Source of the DNA: Candidatus Aminicenantes bacterium
GTDB lineage: Bacteria; Acidobacteriota; Aminicenantia; Aminicenantales; JAFGBC01
Assembly (NCBI GenBank): GCA_963702005.1
Contig: OY969696.1
Coordinates: 4,128,001-4,192,000 of the forward strand
DNA: 64,000 nucleotides
Direction of reading: 5' to 3'
This document shows, piece by piece, positions 6,541 through 12,191 of the stretch (positions are counted from its first letter, which is position 1; each line of letters starts with the position of its first letter). Below the pieces are notes generated by a model. The model was given only the letters and a program-made list of their open reading frames with translations, searched no databases and was not told where the DNA came from. The translations under genes were made by a program, and so were the position numbers.

Positions 6541-7909
6541 TGTTGGGAAAAGTTGAAAAGTAGACACTTTAAACTTCAAAAGTGGACACGTGGAAAAGCC
6601 TTAATCGGGAACTTAGTGGAGGCGACCATTGAGTTGTGCCACCAGACTCGGATCTCCACGGTCTCATTGGCGAGGTTAGGAACCAGGTGCAGGTCGACCT
6701 CTTCGCCCGGGGGGACGTGCTTAATCGGGATTTCCTGTTTGTAGAAGGAGAGGCGTCGATAGGGGTTGACCACCCGCGTTTCCTTGAGGCAGAAGACATC
6801 TTTGGAGGCGTGGTAGGGTTTAGGAACGAGGAAGGGGCGGAAGAGGGACTGGCCGGCCCTGCGAGCCTTCGCAAAGCGATAATCGGGGATCTCGCCGGTC
6901 GTCGCGTGGACTTGGAGTCGATTATAGCGATGCATCTCGTCTTGGAGGACCTGGCGGACCTCCTCGAGGGTGGAGAGCTTTTCGAGGGCCGCCGTCCGCA
7001 CGATCCGATCCTGAAGCCAGCGATAGGAGCGCTCGATCTTGCCCTTGGCCTGGGGCGAGAGAGCATAGATGATCTCCACGCCCAGACTCTTCAGGACCTG
7101 CTTCCAGTAGGGATCGACGTCATCGGTCCTGAGGTTCAACTTCTTCCAAAAACTGTCCCGGTTCTGGACGAAGCGGAAGACGCGCAGGGAGTCCACGTAA
7201 TACTGTAAAGGTAAGCCATAGCGACAGATCAGGGCCTCAGCCGCCTGGATATGGGCCCAGGTGGTCTCGTGGGGAACCAGGTCGGCATACAAGAGCTTGC
7301 GGCTGTAGTCGTCCAGGGAGCTGATCAGGACCCATTGTTCCTGGGCGTAAGGAGACCAGCGGTGATGAGAGGCGTCGTGCTGGATCAGGGCGCCGATCGC
7401 GGTGGTCAGGACCTGCCGGTCGTGGAGCTTCTTCGGAGGATGTCCCTTGTAACATCCTAACGCCTTGGCCCGGCTAATGATCGTCGGGACCGAGACCTTG
7501 ATTCCCCGCTTGAGGAGTCGGTCCCGGATGGCGGAGTAGTTGTAGGAGGTGATCGGGAGGGTCCGGTCTTCGATGAGAGCCTTTTCGGCGATCAGCGCCC
7601 CCTTCATCTCCCCTTCGGCCTGGAGAGGCAGCTTCGCGGGGGACCGCCGGTGATAAGCGATCGAGAACGCCGCAGGATCCTCCCTATAGAGCTTGAGAAG
7701 GGCAAAGAACCGGGCCTTTCCGATGCCGAGGGCCTCTTCGACAACCGCGCGGTCCAGGAGGCCCTCCGTGTACCCCCTGAAGAGATTCCGGACATGCTCG
7801 GTCGTGAACCGTCTGTGAACCTGTTCCATACATTCCTCCTTCTTGAGGAATGTAACCCAGGTGTCCACTTTTCATCTTTAAACTGTCCACTTTTCAACTT
7901 TAAATAACA
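6541..7909 (-). mobile_element. IS1202-family (formerly ISNCY) insertion sequence, apparently intact
   Basis: TGT...ACA ends. Imperfect ~49-bp IRs: TGTTGGGAAAAGTTGAAAAGTAGACACTTTAAACTTCAAAAGTGGACAC versus TGTTATTTAAAGTTGAAAAGTGGACAGTTTAAAGATGAAAAGTGGACAC. Flanking DR GGGTCAAGCCAACC at 6527-6540 and 7911-7924. Confidence 0.88.
6576..7868 (-). CDS. DDE transposase (IS1202/ISNCY type)
   Basis: QHDASHHRW, LDDYSRKL, YGLPLQYYVDS and SPQAKGKIERSYRWLQDR motifs. True start may be MEQVH. Confidence 0.9.
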   Translation of the reverse strand: MDTWVTFLKKEECMEQVHRRFTTEHVRNLFRGYTEGLLDRAVVEEALGIGKARFFALLKLYREDPAAFSIAYHRRSPAKLPLQAEGEMKGALIAEKALIEDRTLPITSYNYSAIRDRLLKRGIKVSVPTIISRAKALGCYKGHPPKKLHDRQVLTTAIGALIQHDASHHRWSPYAQEQWVLISSLDDYSRKLLYADLVPHETTWAHIQAAEALICRYGLPLQYYVDSLRVFRFVQNRDSFWKKLNLRTDDVDPYWKQVLKSLGVEIIYALSPQAKGKIERSYRWLQDRIVRTAALEKLSTLEEVRQVLQDEMHRYNRLQVHATTGEIPDYRFAKARRAGQSLFRPFLVPKPYHASKDVFCLKETRVVNPYRRLSFYKQEIPIKHVPPGEEVDLHLVPNLANETVEIRVWWHNSMVASTKFPIKAFPRVHF

Positions 7910-8039: not shown

Positions 8040-10025
8040 ATGAAGGGGACGCTTTATTTTTCCGTGGTCGCGGCCGGGCTTCTTCTTGTCGCGGCGGCCG
8101 CCCCCGCGGCCAAGACCGATTCCCAAGACGCCGCGGCCGTCTGGACCGAGCTCGGGCCGATGGGGGGCAATATCGTCGCGCTCGCCCGCCATACGAAAGC
8201 CCCCGCCAAGATCTACGCTCTGACCGGGAGCTCCCCCGGCCAATTCTTCCGGTCCGCCGACAACGGGACAAGTTGGAAGCGCATGGCCATCTTCCAGGAC
8301 ACGGCCTATGACATCGCGGTTGATCCCAATAACGGTGACATCGTCTATGTCCTTTCTTACAGTGCCCTATACAAGTCCACGAACACGGGCGATTCGTTCA
8401 AGGAAATACGCTTCCCGGAAGGCATGCACGGCGCGGGACGTATGGCCGTTCGCCCCAACGATCCTAACAACCTCTACGTCGCCGGGACCTTCCGGGCCAA
8501 CAACAAAGAGTGTCTGGCGTTTCTCAAGTCCGCGGACGGAGGACAGACCTGGACGGCGATAAAATTCGACACGGGAGCGACCTATTCAACCGCCGCCGGG
8601 ATCGCCGTCTCGTCCAAGAATCCCAACACCGTTTATTTTTGCGGACATTATTATGACGGAAAATCGCGATACTATAGCCGCGTTTATAGGTCAAGAAACG
8701 GAGGAAACGCCTGGGACAACATCACGGGGCCCATCCTGAATCAAAACAACAAAACTCCCTCCGGCCTGGCCGTCGACCCCACGAATGCGGACCGCGTCTG
8801 GGTGGCCTATAACGACGGTGTACTCCGGAGCACGAACGGGGGAACGACCTGGCTCAAACAAAACAGCTCGTCTTTCTATGGCGGCCCCGTTGCCATCGAC
8901 CCCAACCAGGTTAACACCCTCTACGCGCCGAGCGAGAGCCTCAACGACCCTGGCGTTTACAAGAGCACGGACGGCGGAATCAACTGGAAAAAATACCCTG
9001 AGGGCGTCTACGGCTACGCCAACACGATTATCATCAAAGACAACACGATCCAGGTCGGAACATCGGCCGGGATCTTCCGGAGCAAGAACGGCGGCGGTTC
9101 CTACCAAGCGGCCCACCGCGGCATCAAGGCGACCTGGATTACGACCTTCGCGCTTTCCCCGAGCTCCCCGGGGACGATCTACGCCGAGGCCTGTGACTAT
9201 ACGTATTTCAAGTCGTCAGACGGCGGAGCGAGCTGGATGAAGGGGACCGATTTTTATCGCTGCCACAGCATCATGAATTTCGCCGTCCACCCCGGAAACC
9301 CGAACACGGTCCTCATCCTGGCCGGGGGCTGATATGACGACGACGTCTACAGGTCTGTAGACGGCGGCCAGCACATCACGAACGTCCTCCACAAGAACCT
9401 CGGCGTACTTGCCGGCGATCCCCGGAACGGAAACCGCCTGATCGCGGCCGGCCAGGTCGTGGACGGAACGGCCTCCATGGGCGCCTACATCAGCTTGGAC
9501 GGCGGGTTGACCTGGTCTCCGGTCAAGATCCGGAGTGACGCTAACAGCATGGCCACCGTCGCGGCCTTCGACCCGAAAAACAAAAAAATCCTATATGTCG
9601 GCGGCCAGGACGGCGTCAGCCGGGCCTGCTTGTACAAGAGCACGAACGACGGCGCCTCCTGGACTCAGCTCGCCATCCCGGCCGGCTTCGACATCCTGTG
9701 TCTGGCCGTCGACCCCAAAGCGTCCGGCACCCTCTACTTCGGCGGCGCCAACGGAGTCTTCAAGAGCACGAACGGAGGGTCGAGCTGGACCGAGCTGACC
9801 GGGGTTTACAACGCGCAATCCATGGCCGTCAATCCCAAGAACGGGGACGAGGTTTTTGTCGGTAACTGGTCCGGCGTTTTTTACAGCAAGGACCAGGGTG
9901 CGACCTGGAAGGACCTCAGCCAGGGCATGCCCGTGAAGTCCACGAACTGGGTCGCGGTCCACCCGACGAGCCGAATCATCTACGCCGGGACCTTCAACGG
10001 CGGGCTCCTCAAGCGGAATTTCTAA
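8040..10025 (+). CDS. Secreted BNR/Asp-box (VPS10/YCF48-like) beta-propeller protein with in-frame TGA, putative selenoprotein (661 aa, Sec431)
   Basis: Signal peptide and repeated SxDGGxxW boxes. The frame continues through TGA 9330-9332 (…ILAGG*YDDDVYRSVDGGQH…) into ORF 9459-10025, with a SECIS-like hairpin downstream. Confidence 0.8.
9344..9363 (+). promoter_or_regulatory. Bacterial SECIS-like hairpin
   Basis: CGTCTACA-GGTC-TGTAGACG, a perfect 8-bp stem starting 11 nt after the TGA. Apex CAGGTCTG as in the E. coli fdhF SECIS. Confidence 0.78.
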
Positions 10026-10078: not shown

Positions 10079-11305
10079 ATGAAAGCGTCGAAAACCGTCA
10101 AGCGCCGGGAGTTCATGGCCAAGGCGGGCGCCGCCGCCCTGTCCATGACCGTTCTCCGTCCGGAGCTCGTCCGGGGGACTCAAGCCAATTCCAAAATCAA
10201 GGTCGGACTCATCGGCTGCGGCGGCCGGGGCGGCTGGATCGCCGGACTGTTCCGCAAGCACGGCGGCTACGAAATCACGGCCGCGGCCGATTATTTCAAG
10301 GAGCGGGTTGACGAGGTCGGAACGACTCTCGCCGTCCCCGAATCCCGCAGGTTCACGGGTCTCTCCGGCTACAAGCGGCTGCTCGACGCGGGCGTCGACG
10401 CGGCCGTCATCGAGACGCCGCCCTATTTCCATCCCGAGCAGGCCGCGGCTTCGGTCGACGCCGGCGTCCACGTCTACCTCGCCAAGCCGGTGGCCGTGGA
10501 CGTCCCGGGCTGTAACTCCATCGCCGAGACCGGCCGGCGAGCCTCGGCGAAGAAACGCGCCTTCCTGGTCGATTTCCAGACAAGAGCCCATCCGGCCTTC
10601 ATCGAAGCCGTCACAAGGGTCCACGACGGCGGCCTGGGCGAGCTGCTTTTCGGCGAAGCCGTCTACCACGCCGAATCGCCCTGGGAGCAGTGGTACGACC
10701 TGATCAAAACGGCCCCCGAAAATCCGGAGAACCGCCTCCGGGCCTGGGGCCTGGATAGGGCGCTTTCGGGAGATATGATCACCGAGCAGGACATCCACGC
10801 CCTCGACGTCATGAACTGGGTCATGGGGACGCCCCCGCTCTACGCCCTGGGATGCGGCGGTCTCAAAGCCCGGCCGAGGGTCGGGACCTGCTGGGACCAT
10901 TTCGTCGTCACCTACCAATATCCGGACAAAGTCGGCATCCAGTTCAGCGGCCGCCAGTTCAAGGGACACGGGACGGCTGAGGGCATCAAGAACCGCATGT
11001 TCGGATCCAAGGGAGTCCTGGAGACCGAGTACGGCGGCTCCGTCCTCATCCGCGGCGAGAATTACTACAACGGCGGGAAAACGGCCGAGATCTACGAGGC
11101 CGGGGCCGTCGCCAACATCGCCTCCTTCCATCGCGCCGTCGTCGAGGGCGATTTCCGGAATCCCACCGTCGCCCCGAGCGTCCAGAGCAACCTGATCACG
11201 ATCCTCGGCCGCAAGTCGGCCTACGAGAACCGCGTCGTCGGCTGGGCGGAGCTGCTCAAGGACGGCGAGCGGCTCACGCCCGACCTCAAGGGTTTGAAGG
11301 ACTAG
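10079..11305 (+). CDS. Gfo/Idh/MocA family oxidoreductase with Tat-like signal
   Basis: KRREFM twin-arginine motif, GLIGCGGRG Rossmann motif, HVYLAKPVA, EQDIHALD. Confidence 0.9.
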   Translation: MKASKTVKRREFMAKAGAAALSMTVLRPELVRGTQANSKIKVGLIGCGGRGGWIAGLFRKHGGYEITAAADYFKERVDEVGTTLAVPESRRFTGLSGYKRLLDAGVDAAVIETPPYFHPEQAAASVDAGVHVYLAKPVAVDVPGCNSIAETGRRASAKKRAFLVDFQTRAHPAFIEAVTRVHDGGLGELLFGEAVYHAESPWEQWYDLIKTAPENPENRLRAWGLDRALSGDMITEQDIHALDVMNWVMGTPPLYALGCGGLKARPRVGTCWDHFVVTYQYPDKVGIQFSGRQFKGHGTAEGIKNRMFGSKGVLETEYGGSVLIRGENYYNGGKTAEIYEAGAVANIASFHRAVVEGDFRNPTVAPSVQSNLITILGRKSAYENRVVGWAELLKDGERLTPDLKGLKD

Positions 11306-11327
11306 ACCGCCAGCTAGGAGTATCGCC

Positions 11328-12191
11328 ATGTTTAAGATCGGCCTCGGCCTCGTGTATCTCGTCTCGGCCTTGATCGCAAGTCCGGCCGCCGCCGGCACCG
11401 CCGCGGCTTCCGGAAACGGCGGGCCCGAAGTCAGGCTGGGCGTCTGCGATTGGACGATCGGAAAGTCCGGCGACCCGGCCGCGCTCGGACTGGCCGGAAG
11501 TCTGGGCCTGGACGGCGTCCAGGTCAGTCTCGCCTCCGAGGGCGATTCGCTGGCCCTCGTCCAACCCGCCTTGCGCCGCGCCTATCTCGAAGCGGCCGAA
11601 AGGACGGGTATCGCCATCGCCTCTTTCGCCATCGGCGAGCTCAACGACGTCCCGCTCAAGAGCGACCCGCGCGCTGAAAAATGGCTGGGCCAGGGCATCG
11701 AGGTCGCCCAGGCCATGGGCATCGGGATCCTCCTGGTCCCGTTTTTCGGCAAGGGAGACCTGAGAAACGATCCTCCCGGATTCGACGCCGCGGTTGCGGC
11801 CCTGAAAAGGCTCGCTCCCCGGGCCGAGAAGGCCGATGTAATCTTGGCCCTCGAGAACTGGCTCAGCGCCGGAGAGAACCTCGCAATTCTCGAGCGCGTC
11901 GGCTCGCCGGCCGTCCGGATCTACTACGACGTCGGGAACTCCCAGGACGCCGGGCATCCCATCCTCGAGGAGATCCGACTGCTCGGGGATCGCATCGCGG
12001 AATTCCATGCCAAGGATACCAAGGACCTCTACGGCAAGGGCGCGATGGATTTCCCGGCCGTTCGCAAGGCGATGGAGGACATCGGCTACCGGGGCTGGCT
12101 CATCCTGGAGGGCACCAAGACGCCGCTGGGGGTCGAGAAGAGCATCCGCTACGACGCGGACTACCTGAAGGAAGTCTTCGCGGTCAAATGA
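11328..12191 (+). CDS. Sugar phosphate isomerase/epimerase (xylose isomerase-like TIM barrel)
   Basis: LALENW, YYDVGN, FHAKD and GYRGWLILE motifs. Operonic with the Gfo/Idh/MocA gene. Confidence 0.87.
   Translation: MFKIGLGLVYLVSALIASPAAAGTAAASGNGGPEVRLGVCDWTIGKSGDPAALGLAGSLGLDGVQVSLASEGDSLALVQPALRRAYLEAAERTGIAIASFAIGELNDVPLKSDPRAEKWLGQGIEVAQAMGIGILLVPFFGKGDLRNDPPGFDAAVAALKRLAPRAEKADVILALENWLSAGENLAILERVGSPAVRIYYDVGNSQDAGHPILEEIRLLGDRIAEFHAKDTKDLYGKGAMDFPAVRKAMEDIGYRGWLILEGTKTPLGVEKSIRYDADYLKEVFAVK

Follow-up and report, generated by a model that had tools for sequence, protein, structure and literature searches.

The analyzed window comprises 64,000 nucleotides of the Candidatus Aminicenantes bacterium contig OY969696.1 (assembly GCA_963702005.1, positions 4,128,001 to 4,192,000 of the forward strand), and the gene considered here occupies positions 8040-10025 of its plus strand. 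These positions form one frame of 661 codons followed by TAA, in which the sole internal stop is the TGA at 9330-9332 (codon 431, in the context AGG-U-YDDDVYRSVDGG). Under translation table 11, the same frame contains two open reading frames (ORFs), 8040-9332 (430 aa) and 9459-10025 (188 aa). A preliminary description of this locus had noted that the frame is broken only by this TGA while the propeller repeat continues across it, and the sequence agrees: the Asp-box repeat pattern runs on through 9330-9332. It had also spoken of two annotated ORFs, of which the 430-aa upstream ORF is on record, while for the downstream ORF no exact 188-aa entry exists in the protein collection. The evidence indicates that 8040-10025 is very probably a single gene for an exported beta-propeller selenoprotein, in which the UGA would be read as selenocysteine (Sec). 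The hairpin that follows the UGA is a predicted selenocysteine insertion sequence (SECIS). The features of the gene are as follows.

8040..10025, plus strand: complete gene with the UGA predicted to be read as Sec at codon 431, coding for an exported tandem Asp-box (BNR) beta-propeller (single frame, Pfam, AlphaFold2 model, GH74 fold match)
8040..8111, plus strand: putative N-terminal signal-peptide-like segment MKGTLYFSVVAAGLLLVAAAAPAA, with a helix at residues 7-19 and a low predicted local distance difference test score (pLDDT) at residues 1-31
9261..9263, plus strand: TGC codon of Cys408 (motif DFYRC), within the loop that leads into strand 1 of blade 9 (strand 411-416); candidate partner of Sec431 by column conservation
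9330..9332, plus strand: in-frame UGA, predicted Sec431, after the invariant Gly430 (G-U motif); same column in 14 paralogues, two assemblies, and 38 metagenome matches
9344..9363, plus strand: predicted SECIS core with an 8-bp stem CGUCUACA/UGUAGACG and the apical loop GGUC (9352-9355), coding for part of VYRSVDG (pairing, codon bias, fdhF apex, matches of the covariance model R1)
9341-9366, plus strand: weakly kept SECIS extension (outer pairs in the alignment)
9354..9377, plus strand: Asp-box of blade 9 (S439-V-D-G-G-Q-H-I), overlapping the SECIS 3' arm (translation, family conservation)

The TGA appears to be real sequence. Reads at 9330 had been suggested for inspection, and two independent assemblies from two other studies carry the TGA and the hairpin unchanged: their contigs cover the gene from end to end, ungapped and with 20 and 26 differences, and none of the differences listed in either assembly falls within the TGA or the hairpin. 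A genome-wide reassignment of UGA was rejected, as UGA terminates 1,185 of the 2,368 open frames of at least 400 codons in the genome and also ends six of the propeller paralogues.

The complete genome (4.31 Mb, one contig, labeled G000) was searched with the read-through protein as the query, and many paralogues with exactly one in-frame TGA were found. In 14 of them, the TGA lies at the same alignment column, after Gly and before the same hairpin, which encodes (V/I)(Y/F)(R/S)S(V/E)DGG. A mechanical scan of the genome for a TGA with 100 open codons on each side, followed by a hairpin of at least 6 bp with a G[GT]TC loop, returned 13 matches, and the covariance model R1, built from 24 hairpin elements, returned 14; every match of both searches belonged to the propeller family. 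Twelve of the 14 copies align to the query as one uninterrupted stretch, and the copies at 756 kb and 3456 kb carry one frameshift each, which could be either real or assembly indels. The preliminary claim that the protein is exported was borne out by the family, as all 14 paralogues start with a basic-then-hydrophobic, signal-peptide-like segment.

Three family copies are frameshifted in total, at 756153-758166 and 3454954-3456883 (both with the TGA and the SECIS) and at 1976599-1978582 (with neither), and one frameshift junction lies beside a C5 run, where an assembly indel is possible. The last of these, at 1977 kb, had been flagged as carrying one TGA and was set aside as a frameshifted copy without the Sec codon or the hairpin. 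Additionally, two Sec paralogues adjacent to the sel operon, at 772368-774833 and at 780801-782684 plus some 170 further codons, are open for about 800-820 codons and include a C-terminal extension of about 170-190 residues that has no counterpart in the 8040-10025 copy.

The UGA might instead be a true stop, with the locus representing a pseudogene or two genes and the downstream similarity a decaying remnant. Gene callers do record the 430-aa product alone, two paralogues are frameshifted, and the strain differences downstream of the UGA are non-synonymous. However, the stop occupies the same column in 14 paralogues, at least seven other genomes, and 38 metagenome matches, which rules out independent decay, and the downstream frames are open for 220-390 codons in all 14 copies. 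In five orthologue pairs from a comparison with a genome of the same genus, the TGA was kept in 5/5, and the ratio of non-synonymous to synonymous substitution rates (dN/dS) downstream of the SECIS was 0.22, 0.41, 0.40, 0.39, and 0.31, compared to 0.24, 0.33, 0.40, 0.31, and 0.25 upstream in the same pairs. Past the UGA, the Trp and Gly residues of the Asp-boxes are also invariant. These patterns indicate that translation continues past the UGA and that the downstream part is under purifying selection, and the true-stop explanation is exceedingly unlikely.

The hairpin CGTCTACA-GGTC-TGTAGACG at 9344-9363 lies exactly 11 nt past the TGA and consists of a perfect 8-bp stem that is predicted to fold as drawn, as first described. 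The stem had also been thought extendable by further G-C pairs: two more pairs do follow beyond a 1x1 mismatch, but they are poorly kept in relatives (among 24 sequences, columns 27-52 are paired in 20 and columns 28-51 in 11). Codon usage in the hairpin is distinctive. Gene-wide in the 14 Sec paralogues, AGG accounts for 15% of Arg, TCT for 6% of Ser, and GTA for 6% of Val codons, which confirms the rarity originally remarked for the query gene. Twelve hairpin boxes match the search motif, and in these AGG and TCT each occur in 12/12 and GTA in 10 of 11 Val codons, while in the other 70 Asp-boxes of the same 14 genes TCT is found in 0/70 and AGG in 5 of 31 Arg codons.

Base pairing in the hairpin is conserved among relatives. 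An alignment of 24 hairpin sequences had 91.3% of its cells paired, compared to 16-50% when the partner columns were slid; its ten non-self rows were recruited by an exact 16-mer, so for those rows only the outer positions are unbiased. The pair 31-48 is GC in 18 sequences, AU in six, and unpaired in none, where the 5' base decides between Val (GTC) and Ile (ATC), and its 3' partner is the last base of an Asp codon, a synonymous choice between GAC and GAT. The pair 35-44 is AU in 23 sequences and UA in one. The outermost pair, which was free in the search pattern, is G-C in 24, A-T in 13, and A-C in one of the metagenome matches, thus pairing in 37/38. The compensatory changes at two core pairs indicate that the hairpin is selected as RNA.

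A different origin of the palindrome was considered, in which it is a by-product of Asp-box coding (V-Y-x-x-V-D is self-complementary at the codon level) and has no RNA function. Such a palindrome can arise by chance: in the genome G083, which has no selA match, an ordinary VFKSEDGG Asp-box with no in-frame TGA scored 39.5 bits with R1, and this match was rejected as a false positive. Against a coding by-product stand the AGG-TCT loop codons, which are used in 12/12 hairpin boxes but of which TCT is absent from and AGG infrequent in the other Asp-boxes, the choice of the Asp codon GAC or GAT following the first 5'-arm base in 24/24 sequences, and the fixation of Val440 in Sec forms alone, and the by-product explanation is extremely improbable. 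Val440 is kept in 95% of the Sec forms and is variable in the non-Sec paralogues, as the GTA codon of the hairpin forces Val. The predicted SECIS, overlapping a conserved structural motif, would thus be a clear case of an RNA structure fixing an amino acid.

The hairpin resembles the SECIS of E. coli fdhF. In E. coli K-12 DNA, the fdhF gene reads TGA, 11 nt, then GGTTGCA-GGTC-TGCACC, and the apex CAGGTCTG and the 11-nt spacer proved identical to those of the propeller gene, as the preliminary description had stated. Both elements include a UGA, an 11-nt spacer, and a stem-loop within the coding sequence with a GGUC loop and the apex CAGGUCUG. They differ in the start of the loop, counted from the U of the UGA (21 nt in fdhF, 22 or 25 nt in the propeller family), and in their hosts: fdhF codes for an unrelated protein, while the propeller is not a molybdopterin enzyme and its element also codes for an Asp-box. 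As the apex is identical to that of fdhF, recoding of the propeller gene is probably testable directly in E. coli.

The genome encodes a full set of Sec-decoding genes, which the preliminary description had named as a check. The selA (765451-766824), selD, selB, and tRNA-Sec genes are contiguous at 765-770 kb, and all score above curated cut-offs: 562 bits for selA, 365 bits for selD, 288 bits for selB (summed over its one-frame pieces), and 73.8 bits for tRNA-Sec, which has the anticodon TCA (UCA in RNA). Two further matches to the tRNA-Sec model, at 3352060-3352149 (52 bits) and 3016357-3016448 (45 bits), were assigned to long-arm tRNA-Ser by ARAGORN. Members of the propeller family flank the operon, with four paralogues directly upstream (756-764 kb) and another pair located at 773 kb and 781 kb. 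No Sec-containing FdhA was found in the genome, where the best TIGR01591 match had 154 bits against a cut-off of 666, and no in-frame TGA was present in SelD or in nine AhpC/TSA matches. Within the part of the selenoproteome that was covered, this genome may use its Sec system mainly for the propeller family. A codon-score genome scan for other UGA-interrupted genes yielded 86 candidates, mostly adjacent genes or antisense frames; it missed the propeller family and was dropped.

The occurrence of the family in other genomes follows the Sec machinery. In a sample of 151 genomes of the order, which included the genome under study, R1 matches were found in six: 14 in the genome under study, five in G001, one each in G040, G082, and G089, and the single weak false positive in G083. 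The selA gene was present in 69 of the 151 genomes and in 5/5 of those with true R1 matches, and three further genomes with family members also have selA. An exact 16-mer scan of 185,579 species genomes gave 87 matching stretches, 80 of which were listed; among these 80, ten had a family context and most others were chance or unrelated, while a spurious Streptomyces match (L117) had been left out before counting. Of the ten family-context matches, seven came from metagenome-assembled genomes of Candidatus Aminicenantes, one from Zixiibacteriota, and two from uncultured bacteria, and 5/5 of the genomes examined from this set contained both selA and R1 matches. The distance between selA and a family member is about 0.8 kb in the genome under study, while in G089 it is 5 kb and in G157 it is 11 kb. 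Among the matches listed from a metagenome scan, 33 of 80 loci accounted for 38 matches in the family context, each of them with TGA and several arranged in tandem; two spurious loci with multiple stops or TAG (L230 and L250) were removed before counting.

Public records of the orthologues are consistent with the routine misannotation proposed for this gene, as they are stored as products that end at the UGA: 15 of the 17 listed cluster members are 430 aa long, and two members of the orthologue cluster carry the JGI label "photosystem II stability/assembly factor-like". Since gene callers end genes at UGA, metagenome surveys miss the family.

The UGA could also be passed without the Sec machinery, with the hairpin driving read-through or the insertion of a standard residue such as Trp, Cys, or Arg. 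Stable hairpins past stop codons can stimulate read-through in other systems, and Sec insertion here is predicted from sequence. However, the apex and the spacing are those of the SelB-binding fdhF element, family members are confined to genomes with selA (8/8), in three genomes a member lies no more than 11 kb from selA, and Cys, the usual counterpart of Sec, is the sole standard residue that recurs in sister position. Decoding without Sec is therefore judged very unlikely, though slightly less so than a true stop or a coding by-product.

Homologues with Cys were recovered at the Sec column. The 674-aa protein P0008 shares 39% identity over its full length and has Cys at this column, as do a paralogue from the same genome at 2125 kb and the homologue L043. 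A tree of 37 sequences placed the Sec protein U872139 and P0008 as sisters, and grouped the Cys paralogue at 2125 kb with two Sec paralogues, with a Shimodaira-Hasegawa-like approximate likelihood ratio (SH-aLRT) support of 100 in each case. A check of this column for TGA or Cys with a conserved hairpin had been suggested, and in the homologues it is TGA, or Cys in a few, with the hairpin conserved. The Sec forms are interleaved in the tree with Ser, Asp, Ala, Pro, and Gly forms. Because every Sec form has the same SECIS, a single gain followed by repeated losses appears to be the simpler history. Together with the sel genes and the signal-peptide-like starts, the homologues with TGA or Cys and the hairpin support the reading as a 661-aa exported selenoprotein.

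Domain searches placed the protein among the Asp-box propellers. It matched the Pfam family Sortilin-Vps10 (PF15902) with 143 bits against a cut-off of 33 through five repeated stretches, BNR was also matched, and the NCBIfam model NF045728 (F510_1955 family glycosylhydrolase) was matched with 209.5 against a cut-off of 175 through six repeated stretches on its 246-position profile; both scores are repeat-driven. No selenoprotein model was matched in the NCBIfam search with the protein. The AlphaFold2 model has a mean pLDDT of 93.3, and in a Foldseek search of this model against the PDB, chains of glycoside hydrolase family 74 (GH74) filled the top 23 ranks listed, with E-values from 2.6e-30 to 1.7e-24, template modeling (TM) scores of 0.64-0.70, and identities of 17-20%. 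The predicted fold is a GH74-like tandem seven-bladed (7+7) Asp-box propeller, which is shared with the GH74 xyloglucanases and OXG-RCBH (5FKQ, 6P2O, 2CN3, and 1SQJ), likewise exported tandem seven-bladed Asp-box propellers. The GH74 sequence match is weak and repeat-driven (E 1e-9).

The propeller is probably not a canonical GH74 hydrolase. Asp35 of 1SQJ, in loop 2-3 of blade 1, is presumably the first catalytic Asp of GH74; in the alignment to 1SQJ, the YARTD-IGG motif that carries it is replaced in the propeller by YALTG-SSPG, and an Asp at the Asp35 offset occurs in only about three of 25 family sequences. As the Asp35-type residue is missing, canonical GH74 catalysis is unlikely. The second catalytic Asp of GH74 is Asp465 of OXG-RCBH (a D465N mutant appears in the title of 2EBS), and its possible counterpart in the propeller is Asp387 (blade 8, loop 2-3), which is not conserved in the family. 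The PDB sequence alignments are repeat-shifted, and the comparison also took in a distant GH74-like Streptomyces protein (P0122). No GH74 member with Sec is included in Table 1 of the prokaryotic selenoproteome catalogue (PMC13188914). Propellers of the Sortilin/Vps10 and Ycf48 types lack Sec and serve as binding scaffolds made of one propeller with 10 or 7 blades, unlike the 7+7 model obtained here; Ycf48 gave weak sequence matches. The propeller also differs from the thioredoxin-fold selenoproteins with UxxC or CxxU motifs, as it has an all-beta fold and a G-U motif, and its nearest conserved Cys is 23 residues upstream of Sec.

The AlphaFold2 model places Sec431 in loop 2-3 of blade 9, three residues past strand 2 (424-428) and before strand 3 (434-439). 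In Asp-box propellers, the Asp-boxes sit on the bottom face and the top face is the functional one (PMC2716378). Among 19 Sec forms, Gly430 and Sec431 are the sole invariant residues specific to the Sec forms. Cys408, in the motif FYRC 23 residues upstream of Sec431, is present in 15/19 Sec forms and in 0/6 non-Sec paralogues. As Cys408 and Sec431 would, by blade topology, lie at the top ends of adjacent strands of the same blade, a selenylsulfide between them is geometrically plausible.

These observations permit a mechanism to be proposed. The UGA at 9330-9332 would be decoded as Sec by the SelA, SelD, SelB, and tRNA-Sec(UCA) of the organism itself, directed by the predicted SECIS hairpin with the apex CAGGUCUG 11 nt past the UGA, which is embedded in the coding sequence of the next Asp-box (VYRSVDGG). 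The mature exported protein would have about 635 residues after removal of the signal peptide. Sec431 and Cys408 would then form a redox-active selenylsulfide or a nucleophilic centre acting on an extracytoplasmic substrate; exported TlpA-like thioredoxins with CxxC motifs, whose genes neighbor the sel operon, might regenerate it. Such a Sec-Cys centre, redox or nucleophilic, is put forward tentatively, with a probability short of an even chance. Its possible reductants map to 774988-779674, after the sel operon and before the paralogue at 781 kb: a 4Fe-4S protein of the NapH-like type and three exported TlpA/AhpC-like thioredoxin-fold proteins, paralogous to one another, that have WCxPC motifs. 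One of these three is a fusion with a DUF6029 domain that is probably a beta-barrel, and there is no in-frame TGA in this group.

A selenoprotein with a different mechanism is a somewhat less probable variant, in which Sec would be structural or metal-binding (a selenylsulfide cross-link, or a ligand of a soft metal or metalloid) rather than catalytic in redox chemistry. Costly Sec is rarely kept for structure alone, which speaks against a structural role, and no second conserved ligand residue besides Cys408 was found. The position of Sec in a top-face loop 2-3, where Asp-box propellers act (PMC2716378), likewise disfavors it. In support of this variant, no conserved catalytic constellation surrounds Sec, non-Cys residues replace it in close relatives, and several of the selenoproteins in Table 1 of the catalogue are metal-binding (PMC13188914). 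It would leave the gene a selenoprotein, and it appears somewhat unlikely.

Several observations weigh against reading 8040-10025 as a Sec-dependent enzyme, or against parts of that reading. Close relatives exchange Sec for Cys and also for Ser, Asp, Ala, Pro, and Gly, and such non-Cys replacement would be unusual for an indispensable catalytic residue. No top-face residue besides Gly430 and Sec431 is conserved in the Sec forms, and Cys408 is replaced by Ser or Ala in 4/19 of them. A tree-aware test of coupling between Sec and Cys408 was not significant (median p 0.25), in which the Sec rows 772893, XL161, and XL126 had been labeled "other" through a one-column shift and the change counts were overestimated. 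A frameshift is present in 2/14 Sec-type copies. The six distinct strain differences downstream of the UGA in the 8040-10025 gene are all non-synonymous (6/6), and upstream of it the synonymous to non-synonymous counts are 7:7 in one independent assembly (X1) and 9:10 in the other (X3); these strain-level counts are too few to be informative, and they represent an absence of any sign of constraint at that scale rather than support.

The remaining points concern the hairpin. Its stem is a perfect 8 bp and lacks the bulged U of fdhF, and an Rfam search with the hairpin returned no matching family at E-values up to 10. For such GC-rich DNA, the 61-nt segment has an ordinary folding energy (z = -0.87; 37 of 200 shuffled sequences folded as well), and the 64-kb window contains three perfect hairpins with an 8-bp stem and a 4-nt loop where about one is expected by chance. 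Because of this ordinary energy and these additional hairpins, a single hairpin alone proves little, and the significance of the element comes from its conservation, not from its energy.

A family of this kind appears to be absent from the catalogued selenoproteins. Table 1 of a 2026 review of prokaryotic selenoproteomes contains 119 families or subfamilies (PMC13188914), and no propeller, BNR, Asp-box, Sortilin, or GH74-like family is among them, although its supplementary lists could differ. These terms are similarly absent from the text of the review and from the deep-Sep paper. A full-text literature search returned no report of a selenoprotein with a BNR, Asp-box, or beta-propeller domain, and the combination of Aminicenantes and selenocysteine retrieved unrelated texts only. 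The novelty first suggested for a secreted Asp-box propeller selenoprotein thus holds as far as the 119 entries of that table extend (PMC13188914). Most characterized prokaryotic selenoproteins have a thioredoxin-like fold, and most others are thought to be redox proteins (PMC13188914). The nearest catalogued counterparts include the TonB-dependent receptor of the FCYXU type, the GSU2204 outer-membrane beta-barrel, and the UshA-like proteins, which are also predicted to be extracytoplasmic and lack a thioredoxin fold; they differ in their folds and motifs, none is a beta-propeller, and their catalogue entries report no multi-copy expansion around the sel operon (PMC13188914). The sequence comparisons strongly support a selenoprotein family that is new but relies on the Sec-decoding mechanism already known from bacteria.

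Such a family would add an exported glycosidase-like beta-propeller to the prokaryotic selenoproteins. Its fold, the number of copies that one genome carries, and the genetic linkage to the sel operon make it notable. That a single genome has 12-14 selenoprotein genes from one family bears on why lineages keep the costly Sec system. Beyond the preliminary description, the analysis adds the size of the family, the placement of the sel operon within a cluster of its members, the GH74-like tandem propeller, and the frequent partner Cys. A broader scenario, quite unlikely in its full extent, would be a radiation of exported selenoenzymes. In this scenario, the carboxylate catalysis of a glycosidase-type tandem propeller would have been swapped for a Sec431/Cys408 nucleophile or redox centre, and each paralogue would act on a different substrate by virtue of its variable top-face loops. 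The family, not formate dehydrogenase, would be the main reason that the lineage keeps its Sec machinery, and the SECIS would have been recruited from the self-complementary coding sequence of an Asp-box.

Around the ten loci that hold Sec paralogues, no recurrent neighbor gene was found beyond three exceptions, which were the thioredoxin-like trio (located where the flanks of the 773 kb locus overlap those of the 781 kb locus), the propeller paralogues themselves, and one DUF7948/SBBP pair. Upstream of the 8040-10025 gene, the minus-strand ORF at 6576-7868 (430 aa) matches no Pfam family at E 1e-4 or better; long antisense overlapping ORFs are common in such GC-rich DNA. Downstream, the plus-strand region 10079-12191 encodes an oxidoreductase of the Gfo/Idh/MocA type, whose N-terminus (RREFMAKAGAAAL) is twin-arginine-like, and a TIM-barrel protein resembling xylose isomerase, which suggests a sugar-related context, though this neighbor does not recur at the other paralogue loci.

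Two further observations from the scans are unrelated to the propeller finding. The 16-base palindrome of the hairpin is also present in many actinomycete genomes, at the loci L062, L098, and L099 and about 25 other Streptomyces and Kitasatospora loci; in the three loci examined it is apparently intergenic, lies outside the coding context of the family, and may be operator-like. Similarly, the metagenome contig L254 (36-595) contains seven copies of the palindrome in a tandem repeat of about 84-92 bases.

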